From NCBI GenBank assembly GCA_964443975.1, contig CAYUFS010000015.1, positions 11,711 through 75,710 of the forward strand: 64,000 nucleotides of DNA, written 5' to 3'. The stretch is from an uncultured Myxococcales bacterium. Its GTDB lineage: Bacteria; Myxococcota_A; Polyangia; Fen-1088. This document shows, piece by piece, positions 35,096 to 43,568 of this stretch. The position numbers were made by a program, and so were the translations under genes. The notes beneath the pieces are model-generated. The model did no database searches. It was not told where the DNA came from and saw only the letters and a list, made by a program, of their open reading frames with translations. Position 1 is the first letter of the stretch; each line of letters begins with the position of its first letter.

Positions 35096-35198
35096 CTCGT
35101 CACTCTACCAGCCCACGCCCTGCCACGGGCCGGCGGCGGTCAGGCCGAGGCCCGGCTTGCCAATGCGGGGCGCATGGGCAATGTTTCCGCCCGACATC

Positions 35199-36854
35199 AT
35201 GCGCAGCGATTCCATCAAGAAGGGCATCAATCGCGCGCCCGCGCGCGCGATGCTGAAGGCCACGGGACTGAACGACGCCGACCTCGACAAGCCGCTCGTG
35301 GCCGTCGCCAACACGTGGAGCGACGTCACGCCGTGCAACATGCACCTGCGGACACTCGGCGACAAGGTGAAGGAGGGAATCCGCGCCGCGGGCGGCACCC
35401 CGGTGGAGTTCAACACCATCGTGGTGTCCGACGGGATCTCGATGGGCACCGAGGGCATGCGCGCCTCGCTCGTGTCGCGCGAGGTGATCGCGGATTCGAT
35501 CGAGCTGGCGGTGCTCGGGGCCCTCTGCGACGGGGTCGTGGCCCTGTCCGGCTGCGACAAGACCATCCCGGGCACCGTGATGGCGCTGGCGCGCATGAAT
35601 CTGCCGTCGTTGATGCTGTACGGCGGTTCGATCATGCCGGGCCGGTTTCAGAACAAGGACGTCACCATCATGGACGTGTTCGAGGCGGTGGGCGCCTGCG
35701 CGGCCGGGCGCATGACGCAGGCGGATCTGCGCAGCCTGGAGGACGTCGCGTGTCCCGGGGCCGGGGCGTGCGGCGGCCAGTACACCGCGAACACGATGTC
35801 GATGGCCGTCGCGCTGCTCGGCCTGTCACCGATGGGGCTGAACGACATTCCGGCGCTGGATCCGCGCAAGGGCGACGCCGCCTTCCAGTGTGGCCAGCTG
35901 GTCATGAAGCTGCTGGCGGAAGATCTGCGCCCGAGCAAGCTGCTCACGCGGACGGCGTTCGAGAACGCCATCGCGGGCGTGGCGGCGAGCGCTGGCTCGA
36001 CGAACGCCGTGCTGCACCTGCTGGCGATCGCCCACGAGGCGGGCATCAAGCTCGGCATCGAAGACTTCGGCGCGATCGCCGAGAAGACCCCCATCATCGT
36101 CGACATGAAGCCGGGGGGACGTTTCGTGGCGTCGGATCTGGAGCGGGCGGGTGGGCAGCGGCTGATCGTGAAGCGGCTGTTCGAGATGGGCCACCTCGCG
36201 GACAGCCCCACGGTCAGTGGCAGGACGCTGAAGCAAGAGGGCGAGCTGGCGCGTGAGGCGCCCGGACAGGAGGTCGTGCGCCCGGCCGACAGGCCGCTCA
36301 GCCCGACGGGGGGGCTGGCCATCTTGAAGGGCTCGCTGGCGCCGGAAGGTTGCGTCGTGAAGCTGGCCGGCCACAAGCGCCGCCATCACAGCGGACCGGC
36401 GCGCGTCTACGACTCCGAGGAGCAGTGCTTCGCGGCCGTTCAGGCGCGCGAGGTGCAGCCGAACGACGTGGTGATCATTCGCTACGAGGGTCCCGTGGGG
36501 GGACCGGGCATGCGCGAGATGCTGGCCGTGACGGGCGCGCTCATCGGCCAGGGGCTGGGTGACAGCGTGGTGTTGTTGACGGACGGGCGCTTCTCCGGGG
36601 CGACGCACGGCTTCATGGGCGGGCACCTGGCGCCGGAGGCGGCGGTGGGCGGTCCCGTGGCGTTCGTGCGCGACGGCGACATCGTCACCTTGGACGTGGA
36701 CTCGGGCCGGATCGATGTCGCCGCGGACCTCGACGCGCGGCGCCCCGGCTGGAAGCCCCCGGCCCCGCGCTACCGCTACGGTGTGATGGCGAAGTATGCC
36801 GCTGGCGTGTCGTCCGCGTCGATCGGCGCAGTGACCACCCCCTCGAAGCTCTGA
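35199..36854 (+). CDS. ilvD: Dihydroxy-acid dehydratase
   Basis: The start [23 protein letters not shown] matches IlvD N-termini. CDKTIPG and GGSIMPG Fe-S/active-site motifs are present. Confidence 0.9.
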
Positions 36855-36870
36855 GGCTGGCTTTCGTCGC

Positions 36871-37551
36871 TCATCCACGAAGCGACGCCAATTCACGCAC
36901 CGTCCACATCACGCCGACGGCCGATGCCATCGTGCCTGCCAGCAGGCCGATCGCCGCGCGCACCCCCCGCTTCCGACCCAGGCGGGCGAGCGGCATCCCT
37001 GCGAGACCGGACAGGCCGGCCATGCCAGCCATCGAGCAGAGGCCGAATAGACCGACGTAGGCCAGCCGCAGTCCCGTCGAGGGCAGCCGTGCCGCGATCA
37101 TCGCCGTGAGCGCGCCGCTACCAGCGAGCCCGTGGACCAGACCGATCAGCAGCGATCGGCGGGCGAAGGTCGAGTGCGACTGGCGAAGATGGGGCTGTCC
37201 TGGTCCAGGAAACTGGATCGCGATCCTGTCGGGTCGACGTTCCAGGAAGACGCGGCCAATCGACCGGGCGCCGAGGCCCATCAACATCACGGCAACCGAG
37301 AGCTCGAACATGGTGCCGACCTTCGCGGGCAGGGTGGCTTGTGTCGCGGCCAGCATGCACGCGACCGCGAGGAGGCCAAGCGTATGCCCGAGTCCCCACG
37401 CCGCTCCCAGTCCAACGGCGGCGCCTGGATTCCGTTCCCCGGTCAGCACGGTGGACAACGCGGCGAGATGATCGGGCTCTAGCGCGTGACGCAACCCGAG
37501 CAGAGCCCCGAGCGACCACAACGAGAGGCCCCCGAATATCATCTCCGTCAT
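36871..37551 (-). CDS. NicO/HoxN-family (short form) nickel/cobalt transporter-like membrane protein
   Basis: 226 aa, about 6 TM. LGLRHALEPDHLAAL resembles the NiCoT signature RHAxDADHIAA. It is the last gene of the operon headed by the TonB-dependent receptor. Confidence 0.6.
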   Translation of the reverse strand: MTEMIFGGLSLWSLGALLGLRHALEPDHLAALSTVLTGERNPGAAVGLGAAWGLGHTLGLLAVACMLAATQATLPAKVGTMFELSVAVMLMGLGARSIGRVFLERRPDRIAIQFPGPGQPHLRQSHSTFARRSLLIGLVHGLAGSGALTAMIAARLPSTGLRLAYVGLFGLCSMAGMAGLSGLAGMPLARLGRKRGVRAAIGLLAGTMASAVGVMWTVRELASLRG

Positions 37552-38163: not shown

Positions 38164-40770
38164 TCAGTCCAAGAACAACGTCGCCATCAACCGGATGGTG
38201 ATGGGGTACGCGGGGGTGTAGTCGACGTCCTCGCAGCCATAGAAGCGCCCGCCCCCCGCGGAGCCGTCCGGGGCCGGCGCCAGTCGCCCCTTGCTGCCGC
38301 AGCTGAAACCCGCCGGAACCGCGGAGCCGACGCCGGGCTCCGTCCGCAGCCGGCTGACCGTCGCGAACTGCGCCGAGCGAAAGTCGCTGTCCAGCAGGTT
38401 CTCGATGTCGAGCGCGATGTCGAACCAGCGGTGGCGATAGCCGAGGTGCATGTCGAACTGCGTGAAGCCGGGCGCGACCAGCACGCCGTCGTCGGACGCC
38501 GGCCGATCGCCGATGCCGTAAAAGCGGAGGCCGGCGCGTCCCACGCCGGGTCCGAGCGCGTGCCGCGCCGACAGACCGCCGGCCCAGGTCTGCTTGGGCG
38601 CGAGAGCCAGGCCTCCGCCGTTCTCCATGTCGGTGCTGAACTGGGAGTGCGTGAACGTCAGCGCCAGATCGGCCGCCAACCACGGCGTCACCTCGTAGCG
38701 CGTCTCCATCTCGATGCCGTGGCGGGTGGTGGGATCGCTCACGCCGGTGGTGCCGTCGTCTCCGTTCCAGACCGTCTCGCTGTCGAGGTCGAGCTTCCAC
38801 AGGGCGGCCGCCACGTCCCAGCGACCGAACAGCCGCGCTCGCGCGCCAACCTCTTCACCGATGGCGCGCGCCAGCGGCGTGACGGATGGCTGCGCAAACA
38901 CGCCGCGAACATCGTTCGAGTGAAACCCGCGGCCATAGTTGGCGTAGACGTCGAGGGCGGCGTTCTCTCCGTCGAGCGGCGTGACGATCAGGCTGGCCTT
39001 GGGGCTGAACTGGTGGCCTGCGTCGTTGCCGCTCTTCGGCGCCGTGGGGTCGACCGTGGTCAACCGATTGTCGACGGTGAACGACAGCAGGTCGGCCCGG
39101 CCGCCAACGTCCGCGCGAATCCATCGCGCCGGCGTGATCTCCTCGTTGAGATAGGCGCCGAGGAAGCTCTCATGGACATCGTTCGATCGAACCGCGCTCT
39201 GCTGCTGGCGGTGAGCCGTGTTCCACAGTTCCTCGTGAATGTCGTCGTTCCGCGCGTCCGCGCCCAGGGTCGTGTCGATGGTGACCGGGCCGCTGCGATG
39301 GAGAATGCGGTAGCTCACGCGCCCCCCGTAAAACGTGCGGCGATCGATCTGCTCGATCTCGTCGCCGTTGTCGGGATCGCGCAAGAACAGCGTGAAGTTG
39401 GAGAACAGGTTGAACCGGTAGGTGCCGGCGTAGGCCATCGCCTTCAGCTCGCTGGTCTCGGTGGGACGAAGGCGATACGAGGCAAATAGCTGATGGCGGG
39501 CCGTGTTTCCGCCCTCGTCGGGGTCGATGGAACCGAATCGGGAGATCAGCCCCTCCTCGACCGCCCGCGCCGGGATCTGCCCCGAACCGTGCCAGTTTCC
39601 GGCATAGCTCATCTCACCGATGCTGAGCGTCGAGGTGGGCGCGGACGACAACGTCAGCTTGTTGAAGAGCTTGTACTTGTCCCAGTTCTCCGGGTTGTCG
39701 AAGGGACCGTTCGAGCGCCCGACCTCGGCCGCGAAGGTGGCCTTGATGCCTTCGAGCTTGGGGCTGGCGATGGCCAGCGCCCGATATCCGGCCGACCCGT
39801 GGTTGGGCGAATCGACGAACCCGGCACCCACCGAGCTGTGCTCGAAGGCATCGCGCGACACCATGTTGACGGCGCCCGCCGTCGCGAAATCGCCCTGGCC
39901 GACGAAATAGGGTCCCTTCGTGATCTCCACGCGCTCCACGACCTCGGGGATGATGAAGTTCGTGTCGGCGAAGCCCTGGCCGTGCGCGTGCGACACCATG
40001 TTGATGGGAATGCCGTCGATGGACAGGGCCAGATCCGTGCCGTGGTCGGCGTCGAAGCCCCGCAAGAAGTACTGGTTCGCCTTGCCGCCCCCCGAGTGCT
40101 GCACCATCACCAGCCCGGGCGTGACGCGCAAGATGTCCTGCACGCTGCCGATCGGTCGCAGTTGAAAGTCTCGATCCTGCACCGAGAAAGAAGACGCGGC
40201 GCTGATGGGTCGCGTCCCGAGCACCAGCGTCGACTGGTTCGGGTTGGCCTGAACCACCTCGCGCGGAGGCGCCGCGGCGGGCAGTGGGGCCGGTGGCGGC
40301 GTGGACTGCGGCGCCGCCGGAGCCGGCGCCACCTCGTCCGGTGGCAGGTGGAACTCATAAGTGAACTGGACGGTCGACGGTATGGGCACGCCGCCCTTCT
40401 TCGCGGGCTCGAACGTGAACGTGCGGGCCGTCGCGGCCGCCGCTTCATCGAAGCCATGCCCGGCGCTGGAGGTCACCTTCACGTTGACGACCTGCCCGGC
40501 CGCCGAAATATCCAGCTGAAGGCCCACGTTGCCTTCCACCCGGTCCTTCAACGCCCCCTTGGGATAAGGGGCGTCGGGGTGCGTCTGCAGGGAAGGCGGC
40601 GTGATGGCGTCCTCCGTTGCGGAAGGCGGCAGGTTCGCTGACGTCGGATCTTCCGCCAGGGCTCGCCCCGGCCATATCGAACCGAGGGCGAGCGTGAGCG
40701 CGGCTACCGTCACGCGCCCGGAGAGAACAAGCGCTCCAGACGCACTCTGTTGGTTGGCACGTTTTATCAT
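38164..40770 (-). CDS. TonB-dependent outer-membrane receptor with N-terminal fused TonB C-terminal-like domain
   Basis: The N-terminal YPKGALKDRVEGNVGLQLDISAAGQVVNVKV...FEPAKKGGVPI is a TonB_C fold. A plug domain (DRDFQLRPIGSVQDILRVTPGL) and a beta-barrel ending in F follow. The start is either MIK (40770) or MSS (40800). Confidence 0.8.
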   Translation of the reverse strand: MIKRANQQSASGALVLSGRVTVAALTLALGSIWPGRALAEDPTSANLPPSATEDAITPPSLQTHPDAPYPKGALKDRVEGNVGLQLDISAAGQVVNVKVTSSAGHGFDEAAAATARTFTFEPAKKGGVPIPSTVQFTYEFHLPPDEVAPAPAAPQSTPPPAPLPAAAPPREVVQANPNQSTLVLGTRPISAASSFSVQDRDFQLRPIGSVQDILRVTPGLVMVQHSGGGKANQYFLRGFDADHGTDLALSIDGIPINMVSHAHGQGFADTNFIIPEVVERVEITKGPYFVGQGDFATAGAVNMVSRDAFEHSSVGAGFVDSPNHGSAGYRALAIASPKLEGIKATFAAEVGRSNGPFDNPENWDKYKLFNKLTLSSAPTSTLSIGEMSYAGNWHGSGQIPARAVEEGLISRFGSIDPDEGGNTARHQLFASYRLRPTETSELKAMAYAGTYRFNLFSNFTLFLRDPDNGDEIEQIDRRTFYGGRVSYRILHRSGPVTIDTTLGADARNDDIHEELWNTAHRQQQSAVRSNDVHESFLGAYLNEEITPARWIRADVGGRADLLSFTVDNRLTTVDPTAPKSGNDAGHQFSPKASLIVTPLDGENAALDVYANYGRGFHSNDVRGVFAQPSVTPLARAIGEEVGARARLFGRWDVAAALWKLDLDSETVWNGDDGTTGVSDPTTRHGIEMETRYEVTPWLAADLALTFTHSQFSTDMENGGGLALAPKQTWAGGLSARHALGPGVGRAGLRFYGIGDRPASDDGVLVAPGFTQFDMHLGYRHRWFDIALDIENLLDSDFRSAQFATVSRLRTEPGVGSAVPAGFSCGSKGRLAPAPDGSAGGGRFYGCEDVDYTPAYPITIRLMATLFLD

Positions 40771-40860
40771 AAACGTGCCGCTTGTAGCACGAGAGCTCAT
40801 TATCGTGTTACAAGTTTTTGCATCGCTCTTGTTACAAGTTCTTGGGCGGCTTGCGGGTAG
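40745..40860. promoter_or_regulatory. Candidate operator/promoter region: perfect inverted repeat GGCACGTTT-N7-AAACGTGCC plus tandem direct repeat TGTTACAAGTT x2
   Basis: The inverted repeat lies at about 40755-40779 and overlaps the MIK start codon. The direct repeats lie at about 40806-40846 in the AT-richest stretch of the window. The region sits between the divergent receptor operon and tonB, 1.3 kb from nikR. Confidence 0.4.
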
Positions 40861-40909
40861 TGAAGGGCGGCAGTAAATCCAGGGCCGAGATCAATGGCGC
40901 AGCAGAATC

Positions 40910-41746
40910 GTGGAGCTAGTTCTCTCAGATGAACGATCGGGACCGGTCGTGGCTCTAGGGCGCGGATCTGGACGGGCGCGCCGCGCCGGCCCGGCCGTCG
41001 CCATCGGGGTGTCCGTGTTCGCTCATGCGGCGTTCGCGGCGCTGGTGGGCGGAGGCTTCATGGTCTTTGGCGCCCGCGAGCCCAAGGGCGCTCCGTCGAT
41101 CGAGGTCGACGTGCTCGAGACCGTGGCGCTCGCGGCGGACATCCCCACGGCCCCGACCATCGGCAATCAGGTCACGTCGCCCGCGCAGGCTTCACCTCGG
41201 GCCCGCGCGCGGTCCACCCCCGTTCCGTCAGCCAACCGGAGGCCCGAGCCATCACCAGCGCCTCCCACGGCGCAGGCTTCCCCCGAGGTCGAGTCCCAAC
41301 CGAGCGCGGCGCCGGTGCGCTTCTCGATGAGCGCCGGCACCATCGCGGGTCGGGGTATTCCGGTGAGGAACAGTCGGGAGGGGGGCGCGTCTGTAGCCGG
41401 CCTTGTCATCGGGCCCGGCGGCCCTTCGAGGAGCGGCACGGACGGCGGGAGCGGCGAGATCTTTGGCGAGGACCGGATCAGCGTGCCCGCGCGACTGCTC
41501 TCCAGCGCCAGCGTCCCGTATCCGGCGGCCGCGCGACAGGCCGAGGTCGAAGCGGACGTGCAGGTTCAGCTCGTGGTCGGCGTCGACGGCTTTGTCGAGG
41601 ACGCCCGCGTCGTCAGACCTTGTGGCTACGGCCTCGACGAGGCCGCGCTGGCGGGCGTCCGAAACTTTCGGTTTTCTCCCGCGTTGCGCGACGGTCGACC
41701 GGTTCGTGTCCGGATGCGCTGGCCGGTTCAGTTTCGGCTTCGCTGA
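40910..41746 (+). CDS. tonB: TonB-family energy transducer
   Basis: An N-terminal TM helix, a Pro/Ala-rich spacer, and a C-terminal TonB_C domain (ADVQVQLVVGVDGFVEDARVVRPCGYGLDEAALAGVRNFRFSPA). Confidence 0.75.
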   Translation: MELVLSDERSGPVVALGRGSGRARRAGPAVAIGVSVFAHAAFAALVGGGFMVFGAREPKGAPSIEVDVLETVALAADIPTAPTIGNQVTSPAQASPRARARSTPVPSANRRPEPSPAPPTAQASPEVESQPSAAPVRFSMSAGTIAGRGIPVRNSREGGASVAGLVIGPGGPSRSGTDGGSGEIFGEDRISVPARLLSSASVPYPAAARQAEVEADVQVQLVVGVDGFVEDARVVRPCGYGLDEAALAGVRNFRFSPALRDGRPVRVRMRWPVQFRLR

Positions 41747-42173
41747 GGGCATGCAGGTGCTCGCGTCCGAGCATGTCGGCGACCAGCTCGACGCCGCCGT
41801 GCTTCACGCCACGCATCCCCAGAACACGGTTCGCGATCTCTTTCAGCCGATCCGATTTTCCCCTGATGATCACCACCTCCATGCACAGATCGTGGCTGAG
41901 GTGAACATGCAACGAAGCCCGCACCGCCTCGCCCAGGTCATGCTGTAGAGCGGTGAGTCGGTTGCTGAGATCGCGCACGTGGTGGTCGTAGACCAGCGTC
42001 AGCGCCGCCACGGAATCCACGCCAAGCGGAACCTTCGCACGCCCGATCTCGGCGCGCGCCAGATCGCGGAACAACTCGGAGCGTGTGCAGTCGCGCTCCG
42101 TGGCCAGGGCGTCGATTTCTTCCAACAGGTCGCCATTGATGGCCACACCGAAGCGGACGAGGTCGGCTTTCAT
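41613..42173 (-). CDS. nikR: Nickel-responsive regulator NikR (ribbon-helix-helix + metal-binding domain), with unusual C-terminal extension
   Basis: MKADLVRFGVAINGDLLEEIDAL is an RHH. SLHVHLSHDLCMEVVIIRG is the NikR H-x-H...C nickel site. The ORF continues about 50 aa past the usual end and overlaps the convergent tonB 3' end. Confidence 0.7.
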   Translation of the reverse strand: MKADLVRFGVAINGDLLEEIDALATERDCTRSELFRDLARAEIGRAKVPLGVDSVAALTLVYDHHVRDLSNRLTALQHDLGEAVRASLHVHLSHDLCMEVVIIRGKSDRLKEIANRVLGMRGVKHGGVELVADMLGREHLHALSEAETEPASASGHEPVDRRATREKTESFGRPPARPRRGRSHKV

Positions 42174-42262: not shown

Positions 42263-42943
42263 TCAGAACTCGTGGCCGATGACCAGCCGGAACGGGAAGA
42301 TTCGGCCCAGGCCCGTGCGCGAGGTGGGGGCGTTGCTGGAATAGATCCAGTAGCGAAAGTCGATGGCGAAGGGCTGAACGTCGACGAACCAGTGGTTCCA
42401 GGTCGCCGCGAGCTCGAGGCCGAATCCGCTCTCCATGCGCAGGAATTTGCCCCCCGTCACGAACATGATCTCTCCGCGCACCAGCGTGAGGATGGGCTCG
42501 AGGTCCAGCCGGAATTTCGGCGAGTCGTCGAGGTGGATCGGATAGCCGAAGGAGATGAGGTCGATGCGAAATCCGCGCGCCGAATATCCCTCGGAGCTCT
42601 CCCATTGATACGCGAGGCCGAGGTGATCGCGGACGTACGAGCTGGAGGGCGAGACGAGGTCGAGTCCGAACGCGTTGGTCGCGCGGCTGTTGTTGACGAG
42701 GTCGCCGTCCTCCTCGATGACGTGGCTGTACGTGAGGCCGAGGCGAAAGGGGCTGTCCCCGCCAATGCGCGGCGTCGGGGCCGCGGTCGCCGGCGCAGGC
42801 TGGGGTGCGGGAGCGGGCGGAGTGCTCCCCGGGGCTACTTCTGTCCCGGGGGCCAGCTTCGGGTCACCGATATCCTGAGCGCTGACGAACCCGCCCGAAC
42901 AGATCGAGGCCAGCAGGGGAAGCACGGTCCGAAGCCGGCGCAT
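42263..42943 (-). CDS. Putative small outer-membrane beta-barrel protein (ends GHEF)
   Basis: Signal MRRLRTVLPLLASICSGGFVSAQD. Alternating aromatic strands. A C-terminal Phe. Confidence 0.5.
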   Translation of the reverse strand: MRRLRTVLPLLASICSGGFVSAQDIGDPKLAPGTEVAPGSTPPAPAPQPAPATAAPTPRIGGDSPFRLGLTYSHVIEEDGDLVNNSRATNAFGLDLVSPSSSYVRDHLGLAYQWESSEGYSARGFRIDLISFGYPIHLDDSPKFRLDLEPILTLVRGEIMFVTGGKFLRMESGFGLELAATWNHWFVDVQPFAIDFRYWIYSSNAPTSRTGLGRIFPFRLVIGHEF

Positions 42944-43064: not shown

Positions 43065-43133
43065 CATGGACATTCCGTGGGAGAGCGCGCGCAAAACACT
43101 TCACCCATCTCGGTGGCCCCGCCGCACGCCGAG

Positions 43134-43568
43134 ATGGGGGTCCTCATCAGCGAGCTGATGAAGCACGTCAACCGGCGTTCGGCGGGCGACACGCTCGCGA
43201 TCCTGAACGACGCGGGTCTCACGTTACCCCAGCTCGTGACGTTGCACATCCTGGACCAGTGTGGCGTTCGGACGGTCTCGGCCATCGCCTCGTCGCTGCG
43301 CCTGTCAGCCGCGGCTACCAGCCACCTCGTCGATCGACTGGTCGTGGGTGGGTTCGTCGGACGCATCGAGGATCCGGATGACCGCCGGCAAAAGCGTGTC
43401 ACGCTCACCGCCAGTGGACGGCGGCTGGTCGATCGAGTACAGCGAGAGCGCACCCGCGAGATGACGGAGGCCGTCGCGGGGTTGTCAGCAGAGGTGTCTC
43501 GTCAATTCGGGCGGGTCTTGAGTCGGGTCATCGAGGAACTGTCGTCTTTGCCAAAGGGCGTGCCATGA
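43134..43568 (+). CDS. MarR-family transcriptional regulator
   Basis: Winged-helix block LTLPQLVTLHILDQCGVRTVSAIASSLRLSAAATSHLVDRLVVGGFVGRIEDPDDRRQKRVTLTASG. Its stop overlaps the next ATG (ATGA). Confidence 0.7.
   Translation: MGVLISELMKHVNRRSAGDTLAILNDAGLTLPQLVTLHILDQCGVRTVSAIASSLRLSAAATSHLVDRLVVGGFVGRIEDPDDRRQKRVTLTASGRRLVDRVQRERTREMTEAVAGLSAEVSRQFGRVLSRVIEELSSLPKGVP

Follow-up and report, generated by a model that had tools for sequence, protein, structure and literature searches.

Three described NikR systems, in delta-proteobacteria, E. coli and Helicobacter pylori, lie closest to the locus considered here. In the delta-proteobacteria, comparative genomics has predicted the NikR signal GTGTTAC-[N13/14]-GTAACAC, which shares its 27-28-bp structure with the enterobacterial GTATGAT-[N13/14]-ATCATAC (Rodionov et al., 2004, Genome Biol 5:R90; PMC545781). 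A 'reversed' form, GTAACAC-[N13]-GTGTTAC, was reported in Desulfotalea psychrophila and upstream of nikK in D. vulgaris, and two tandem sites precede one Desulfotalea cluster (PMC545781). In H. pylori, the outer-membrane receptors FecA3 and FrpB4 are both under NikR repression, and the protein also binds between nikR and exbB; its half-site centres are separated by 20 nt, or two turns of the helix, contacted by a single tetramer (PMC5385501). The present analysis concerns a stretch of 64,000 nt (the window) from an uncultured Myxococcales bacterium (contig CAYUFS010000015.1), and within it the control region that separates the operon of a TonB-dependent receptor from a divergent tonB-like gene. 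This region contains two 28-bp palindromes. Comparison with related genomes indicates that they are very probably two adjacent NikR operators, at which the encoded nickel-bound protein (Ni-NikR) would repress nickel uptake.

Two 28-bp palindromes in the control region

Both palindromes have the form GTARCACG-N12-CGTGYTAC (8 + 12 + 8), with half-site centres 20 nt apart. A preliminary description of the same region, made from the sequence alone, had proposed a different arrangement, built from a 9-bp inverted repeat (dyad) and a pair of 11-bp direct repeats. The elements relate to one another as follows.

40784..40811, + strand: predicted NikR box 1, the strong primary box, comprising GTAGCACG (40784-91), the spacer AGAGCTCATTAT and CGTGTTAC (40804-11)
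40754..40781, + strand: predicted NikR box 2, the weaker secondary box, comprising TTGGCACG, the spacer TTTTATCATAAA and CGTGCCGC
40756..40779: 9-bp dyad of the preliminary description, located by repeat search; the inner part of box 2
40806..40816, + strand: proximal copy of the 11-mer TGTTACAAGTT, whose first 6 nt lie within the right half-site of box 1, CGTGTTAC (40804-40811)
40830..40840, + strand: distal copy of TGTTACAAGTT, an orphan that resembles a half-site, has CTTG in place of the CGTG core and is without a partner half-site

Box 1 has no mismatches to the degenerate consensus GTRRCACG-N12-CGTGYYAC and box 2 has two; their centres are 30 bp apart. A position weight matrix was built from 41 orthologous boxes of other Polyangia genomes, the window being excluded, and used to scan both strands. 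Box 1 scored 32.2 bits and box 2 19.7 bits, and the next best site in the 64 kb scored 1.4 bits. With the same matrix, 20 random 64-kb sequences generated by a first-order Markov model gave a mean best score of 6.1 bits and a maximum of 10.7 bits. Chance is excluded for both boxes, at 32.2 and 19.7 bits against a random maximum of 10.7.

The start codon of the receptor lies among these elements. The list of open reading frames (ORFs) begins the gene at ATG 40800 (protein start MSS), within the non-conserved spacer of box 1. The related locus L001, which is 82 % identical, has an in-frame stop codon at the MSS position and starts MKKRAT; L008 starts MKIRAT, and the second ATG in the window (40770) gives MIKRAN. 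In addition, the exact 868-aa product that starts MIK is called on 24 public contigs. From these comparisons the receptor start is MIK at 40770, not MSS at 40800, and the 'MSS' ATG in the box 1 spacer (40798-40800) is non-functional. It follows that box 1 is untranslated and that box 2 straddles the start codon, which lies in its spacer (CAT 40768-40770). The preliminary description had named a true start at MSS 40800, with the dyad in a translated context, as one finding that would count against an operator; the comparisons instead favour the operator, as they point to the MIK start and leave box 1 outside the coding sequence.

Receptor codons 2-4, imposed by box 2, are rare in this genome (ATA 3.9 %, AAA 6.6 % and CGT 8.6 % of their own codon families). 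This argues that the nucleotide sequence, and not the peptide, is what is kept. In L006 the right half-site of box 2 has CATG instead of CGTG and contains the start ATG, and the same substitution probably accommodates the start ATG in L002, L004, L037 and L065.

Several details of the preliminary description can be refined. The inverted repeat, GGCACGTTT (40756-40764) and AAACGTGCC (40771-40779), does have perfect 9-bp arms, but they are separated by 6 nt (TATCAT) and not by the 7 nt of TATCATA. The CAT of the MIK start had been placed at the centre of the dyad; it is inside the spacer and adjoins the centre, at 40767.5. The 11-mer TGTTACAAGTT is present twice as reported (40806-40816 and 40830-40840, 24 nt start-to-start), with a measured gap of 13 nt in place of 16, and its first copy begins 27 nt past the dyad, slightly nearer than the thirty nucleotides given. 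The low GC content holds, as no 100-nt stretch in the 64 kb falls below the value of 40741-40840 (0.44 versus 0.68 overall). Repeat searching also returned a longer dyad that had been overlooked, formed by CTTGTAGCACGA (40781-40792) and TCGTGTTACAAG (40803-40814), with the first ATG of the long ORF at its centre.

By repeat statistics alone, neither the dyad nor the 11-mer pair stands out. The window contains 15 perfect 9-bp inverted repeats with spacers of up to 12 nt, compared with approximately 10 expected in first-order Markov random sequence, and short-range 11-mer direct repeats are likewise common. The region gains its significance because other genomes have kept the motif of both 28-bp palindromes ahead of the orthologous gene. 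The dyad had been put forward as a candidate operator; the main predicted operator is a different palindrome, GTAGCACG-N12-CGTGTTAC at 40784-40811, the dyad being only the inner part of the weaker box. Its 9-bp arms and 6-nt spacer place the half-site centres 15 nt apart, which is not the geometry of NikR; read as TTGGCACG-N12-CGTGCCGC, the same region has centres 20 nt apart, which is. Nor do the 11-mers form a pair of half-sites, since one overlaps the right half-site of box 1 and the other, missing from relatives, lacks both the CGTG core and a partner.

Every box that includes the distal 11-mer scores 0.5 bits or less with the matrix. The copy is not found in L001 or other close relatives, in which the space between the genes could not accommodate it. 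It is probably the decayed remnant of a 24-bp local duplication (18/24 positions identical by eye). Tandem Repeats Finder reported no tandem array over this duplication.

Conservation of the box and its probable assignment to NikR

GTDB genomes yielded 70 relatives of the receptor, almost all from metagenome-assembled genomes of Polyangia or other myxobacteria. Of the 55 related loci that include upstream sequence, 46 have a box in the 450 nt before the aligned beginning of the receptor match, and approximately 13 loci have a second, weaker box 30-34 bp from the first. Across 42 loci the arms GTAGCACG and CGTGYTAC are nearly invariant, and the AT-rich spacers vary in sequence but are constant in length. 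The left half-site is preferentially GTAGCAC, with G at position 4 in 36/41 sites. Further copies of the repeats first noticed were sought in the related loci: the exact dyad and 11-mer are nearly absent, while the 28-bp palindrome that contains the dyad is conserved. This element emerged only when the upstream regions of the relatives were read side by side.

The genes that follow the box are of a restricted kind. The related loci, 738 kb in all, contain 68 boxes with a score of 15 bits or more; in 64 cases a receptor, tonB-like, nikR or UreH-like gene follows at a distance of less than 400 nt. The tonB-like gene is divergent from the receptor, with a box between them, in approximately 35 related loci, and nikR is within a few kilobases of the receptor in 24 of the 70. 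Boxes occur upstream of nikR in L007, L028, L039 and L067, and separately transcribed UreH-like genes carry their own boxes in L028, L043 and L058; none of these boxes was used in the matrix. L114 likewise has a box directly upstream of nikR. In L034, L036 and L056 the box nearly fills the space between the divergent start codons, so that one bound tetramer would sit on both presumed promoters, and an overlap of the box with the core promoter is likely.

A check independent of homology was made by scanning the exact box pattern (approximately 15.5 specified bases) against metagenome contigs; this returned many chance matches, as expected. The box was found directly upstream of UreH-like genes in six loci and beside nikR in five, three of the latter being low-GC human-gut contigs. 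Among 150 ORFs flanking the metagenome boxes, the recurring Pfam families were Plug and TonB_dep_Rec (8 and 7), TonB_C (8) and NicO (2), and other recurrences did not exceed 2. CbiM and SBP_bac_5 were among the families that occurred once.

Some further observations concern the distribution and surroundings of the box. Four loci of GC content 0.44-0.49 (L081, L099, L108 and L116) have a box of the form GTAACACG-N12-CGTGCTAC beside distant nikR homologues (28-33 % identical); L099, L108 and L116 are human-gut metagenome contigs. NikR thus appears, from the sequence comparison, to recognize this half-site in organisms well beyond the myxobacteria. At L087 4586-4613 and L091 3507-3534, short tandem GTAGCAC arrays (GTAGCACGTAGCACGTAGCACGTGTTAC) are unrelated simple repeats that match the pattern by coincidence. 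A conserved A/T-rich patch (gAAAnnn, AT fraction 0.7-0.9) is present 3-8 nt upstream of the box in most of the 42 anchored loci, corresponding to approximately 40814-40819 in the window. This patch may extend the operator or form part of a promoter.

The suggestion of a metal-responsive operator with NikR as candidate regulator is well supported by the boxes, by their conservation and by the recurrence of nikR and nickel-transport genes beside them from genome to genome. The boxes have the 27-28-bp geometry and the half-site sequence of a NikR operator; they lie near an intact nikR, at a nickel-gene location that recurs in other genomes, and they form a phylogenetic footprint. The NikR product encoded in the window matches solved NikR structures (E = 9e-23 and 2e-21), and in alignment it has a counterpart to each of the four high-affinity nickel ligands of the E. 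coli protein (H76, H87, H89 and C95), so the nickel site is intact.

A mechanism can be proposed on this basis. When nickel is plentiful, Ni-NikR would bind the strong box 1 (40784-40811) and probably also box 2 (40754-40781), more weakly or cooperatively, one box-length downstream and over the receptor start codon. One NikR tetramer would span each box through two ribbon-helix-helix (RHH) dimers, contacting half-sites two helical turns apart. Such binding would be expected to shut off the operon encoding the receptor, a 200-aa protein and a UreH-type permease, and very likely the tonB-like gene too, whether by promoter occlusion or as a roadblock. When nickel is scarce, NikR would leave and uptake would be expressed.

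A number of points weigh on the other side. The assignment of the boxes to NikR is drawn from comparison, and the order of the half-sites is of the less common 'reversed' type. Box 2 is weak and partly coding sequence, which could contribute to its conservation. A promoter scan of 40650-41000 returned no sigma-70-type promoter, and no -10 or -35 hexamer occurs at a fixed offset across the 42 anchored loci. In addition, the matrix scan found no box before nikR or the 226-aa gene that precedes it, nothing else in the window exceeding 1.4 bits. Since no box precedes nikR, it is probably not autoregulated here.

Alternative readings of the palindromes

The palindromes might act in RNA as well as in DNA. 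The boxes would then work at two levels, with the DNA binding Ni-NikR and the transcribed hairpins, the AUG of box 2 in a loop, tuning translation or mRNA stability. This is unlikely; if true, it would explain both the one-sided G:T bias described below (44 versus 4) and the retention of a second box over the start codon despite the rare codons. A more radical version, in which two leader hairpins mainly control translation initiation or mRNA stability and NikR-DNA binding is secondary or absent, we consider very unlikely. Folding of the minus-strand RNA (40850 to 40730) gives precisely these two hairpins (-37.6 kcal/mol, z-score -3.3), the AUG of box 2 being in a 6-nt loop, and box 2 is necessarily transcribed because the start codon is inside it. 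Moreover, departures from symmetry in the 41 orthologous boxes are strongly one-sided: over five pair positions, the receptor-sense strand has 44 of G:T type and 4 of A:C type.

Any DNA palindrome, however, folds if treated as RNA, and the arm sequences are fixed, not merely complementary. Covariation does not rise above column composition, with one double change in 336 cells, and shuffles reach the observed value in 92 to 241 of 500 runs. Box 1 of the window itself has an A:C mismatch in the receptor-sense strand. The same box also precedes unrelated genes (nikR and UreH-like genes) and matches the published NikR signal. An Rfam scan of 40000-41500 at E values up to 10 gave chance-level hits only, none better than E = 6, and detected no structured cis-regulatory RNA and no riboswitch. 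The G:T bias may reflect only approximately five independent events, or an overlap of half-site and promoter element; a role of the transcribed hairpin and strand-biased deamination are further possible causes.

Two observations on these structures may be added. By eye, G:T-type asymmetry is also seen in boxes upstream of nikR, tonB-like and UreH-like genes, and box 1 of the window is an exception in that its G:T falls in the tonB-like sense. A single terminator-like hairpin was recorded upstream of the start codon at 40774-40791 on the minus strand (CGTGCT...GGCACG followed by a T-rich run). This hairpin is a by-product of the adjacent boxes, formed between the right half of the first and the left half of the second.

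A regulator other than NikR could own the boxes, NikR binding at them being a prediction. A MarR-family gene is 2.3 kb away (43077-43568), and ModE signals of similar layout, GTCACG-N14-CGTGAC, have been predicted in Desulfovibrio (PMC545781), so that the MarR-family protein, a ModE-like factor or another protein might be considered. The half-site fits the published NikR signal and not that of ModE, the box directly precedes nikR itself in the five loci named above (L007, L028, L039, L067 and L114), and the regulated genes are nickel transporters. No MarR homologue was found among the 70 related loci in which the box is retained, compared with nikR in 24; the MarR-family protein was rejected as the regulator because it is not co-conserved with the box. 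The chance that any such regulator takes the place of NikR is slim.

The preliminary description had also raised a Fur box, and with it iron-responsive repression, on the strength of the central TATCATA. On the receptor-sense strand the spacer of box 1 does read GATAATGA and that of box 2 TTATGATAA. The best match in the region to the 19-bp GATAATGATAATCATTATC, however, is 11/19, which 69 window positions equal or better, and these Fur-like AT-rich centres are the non-conserved spacers across the 42 loci, whose arms are nearly invariant. A Fur box is therefore hardly credible. That the repeats are functionless chance features of an AT-rich intergenic region, given that perfect 9-bp inverted repeats and short-range 11-mer direct repeats are no rarer in the window than in random sequence of like composition, can be set aside almost completely in view of boxes of 32 and 20 bits against a random maximum of 10.7 and of their recurrence in 46/55 loci; only for the distal 11-mer copy is a chance origin possible.

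Neighbouring genes and comparison with known NikR systems

The genes around the boxes, in order along the window, are as follows.

36871..37551, - strand: UreH/NicO-type inner-membrane nickel permease, 226 aa, third gene of the operon, with weak matches to PF03824 and TIGR00802
37548..38150, - strand: 200-aa protein of no known family, second gene of the operon
38164..40770, - strand: TonB-dependent outer-membrane receptor, 868 aa from MIK, first gene of the operon, identified with Pfam and NCBIfam
40910..41746, + strand: TonB-like gene with a C-terminal TonB_C domain, divergent from the receptor
41613..42173, - strand: nikR, the presumed regulator, 186 aa, identified by tblastn, with Pfam RHH_1 and NikR_C domains
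43077-43568: MarR-family gene, 2.3 kb from the boxes

Public gene calls on identical DNA agree with this layout and make the permease the last gene of the operon, followed by a convergent dehydratase gene. The receptor has a TonB_C-like domain (residues ~68-142) ahead of Plug, as in the model of the myxochelin receptor MxcH. This N-terminal domain is found throughout the receptor family recovered here, and the receptor is also paired with the separate divergent TonB-like gene. The start of the latter is uncertain, either GTG 40910 or 40949, and the public gene call has ATG 41060. The 200-aa protein gave no Pfam or NCBIfam match, and in 33 related loci its gene comes directly 3' of that for the receptor. 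A signal peptide can be recognized by eye, closing with ...LTASAC and hence with a cysteine, so the protein may be a lipoprotein and a candidate accessory component of nickel uptake. The permease belongs to a large family with members named 'high-affinity nickel-transport protein' or 'Nickel transporter UreH'. A 356-aa ORF (35826-36896, - strand) was considered as a fourth gene of the operon and rejected; it has no homologues in related loci and is probably spurious, and public calls place a 557-aa dihydroxy-acid dehydratase gene (ILVD_EDD) opposite it, at 35181-36854 on the + strand.

nikR is 0.8 kb from the boxes and convergent with the TonB-like gene. The two overlap by 134 nt (41613-41746), as they do in the public gene calls. 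The C-terminal tail of NikR extends approximately 50 aa past NikR_C and is His-rich in relatives, though not here. Directly upstream of nikR on the same strand is a 226-aa gene (42263-42943, - strand), which had no Pfam match and may be co-transcribed with it.

The operator pair is of a type already predicted by comparative genomics, a well-supported and ordinary kind of metal-responsive switch, and it leaves the understanding of how NikR works unchanged. That TonB-dependent receptors and TonB machinery are NikR targets is already known from H. pylori. What is new is the Polyangia lineage, the particular gene set and the refined 28-bp matrix; a literature search found no description of a myxobacterial NikR regulon. 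The result offers a concrete, testable nickel regulon for Polyangia myxobacteria, whose members behind predicted NikR boxes are a receptor with a TonB_C-like domain, its TonB-like partner, the 200-aa protein and the UreH-type permease. It also extends the 'reversed' NikR signal of 2004 to another lineage, with a matrix suited to the annotation of genomes and metagenomes.

The signal of Desulfotalea and D. vulgaris shares with the boxes described here the heptamer (here GTARCAC / GTGYTAC), the outward-facing 'reversed' order and the 27-28-bp length, together with a position upstream of nickel-uptake genes and an occurrence as tandem boxes. It differs in the spacer between heptamers, which is N13 there and N14 here, and in that GTAGCAC is preferred as the left half-site here. 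The host is also different, a member of the Polyangia, and the genes encode a receptor, a TonB-like protein and a UreH-type permease in place of the NikMNQO ATP-binding cassette (ABC) transporter.

The E. coli nikABCDE operator (GTATGAT-[N13/14]-ATCATAC) is likewise a 28-bp inverted repeat with two-turn spacing and outer GTA...TAC, whereas its inner half-site is TGAT and that of the present boxes GCAC. The proteins have the same architecture, RHH and NikR_C with four nickel ligands. E. coli has a single box and an ABC importer; here there are two boxes, a receptor operon and a divergent tonB-like gene.

In H. pylori the operator is an AT-rich pseudo-palindrome, TRTTA-N15-TAWTA, unlike the one described here, and nikR is the divergent partner, whereas in the window nikR is convergent with the tonB-like gene and is without a box of its own. 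The two systems nevertheless have in common the 20-nt spacing of half-site centres, a divergent region beside TonB machinery (exbB-exbD-tonB in H. pylori) and the control of TonB-dependent receptors by NikR, which is predicted for the Polyangia locus.

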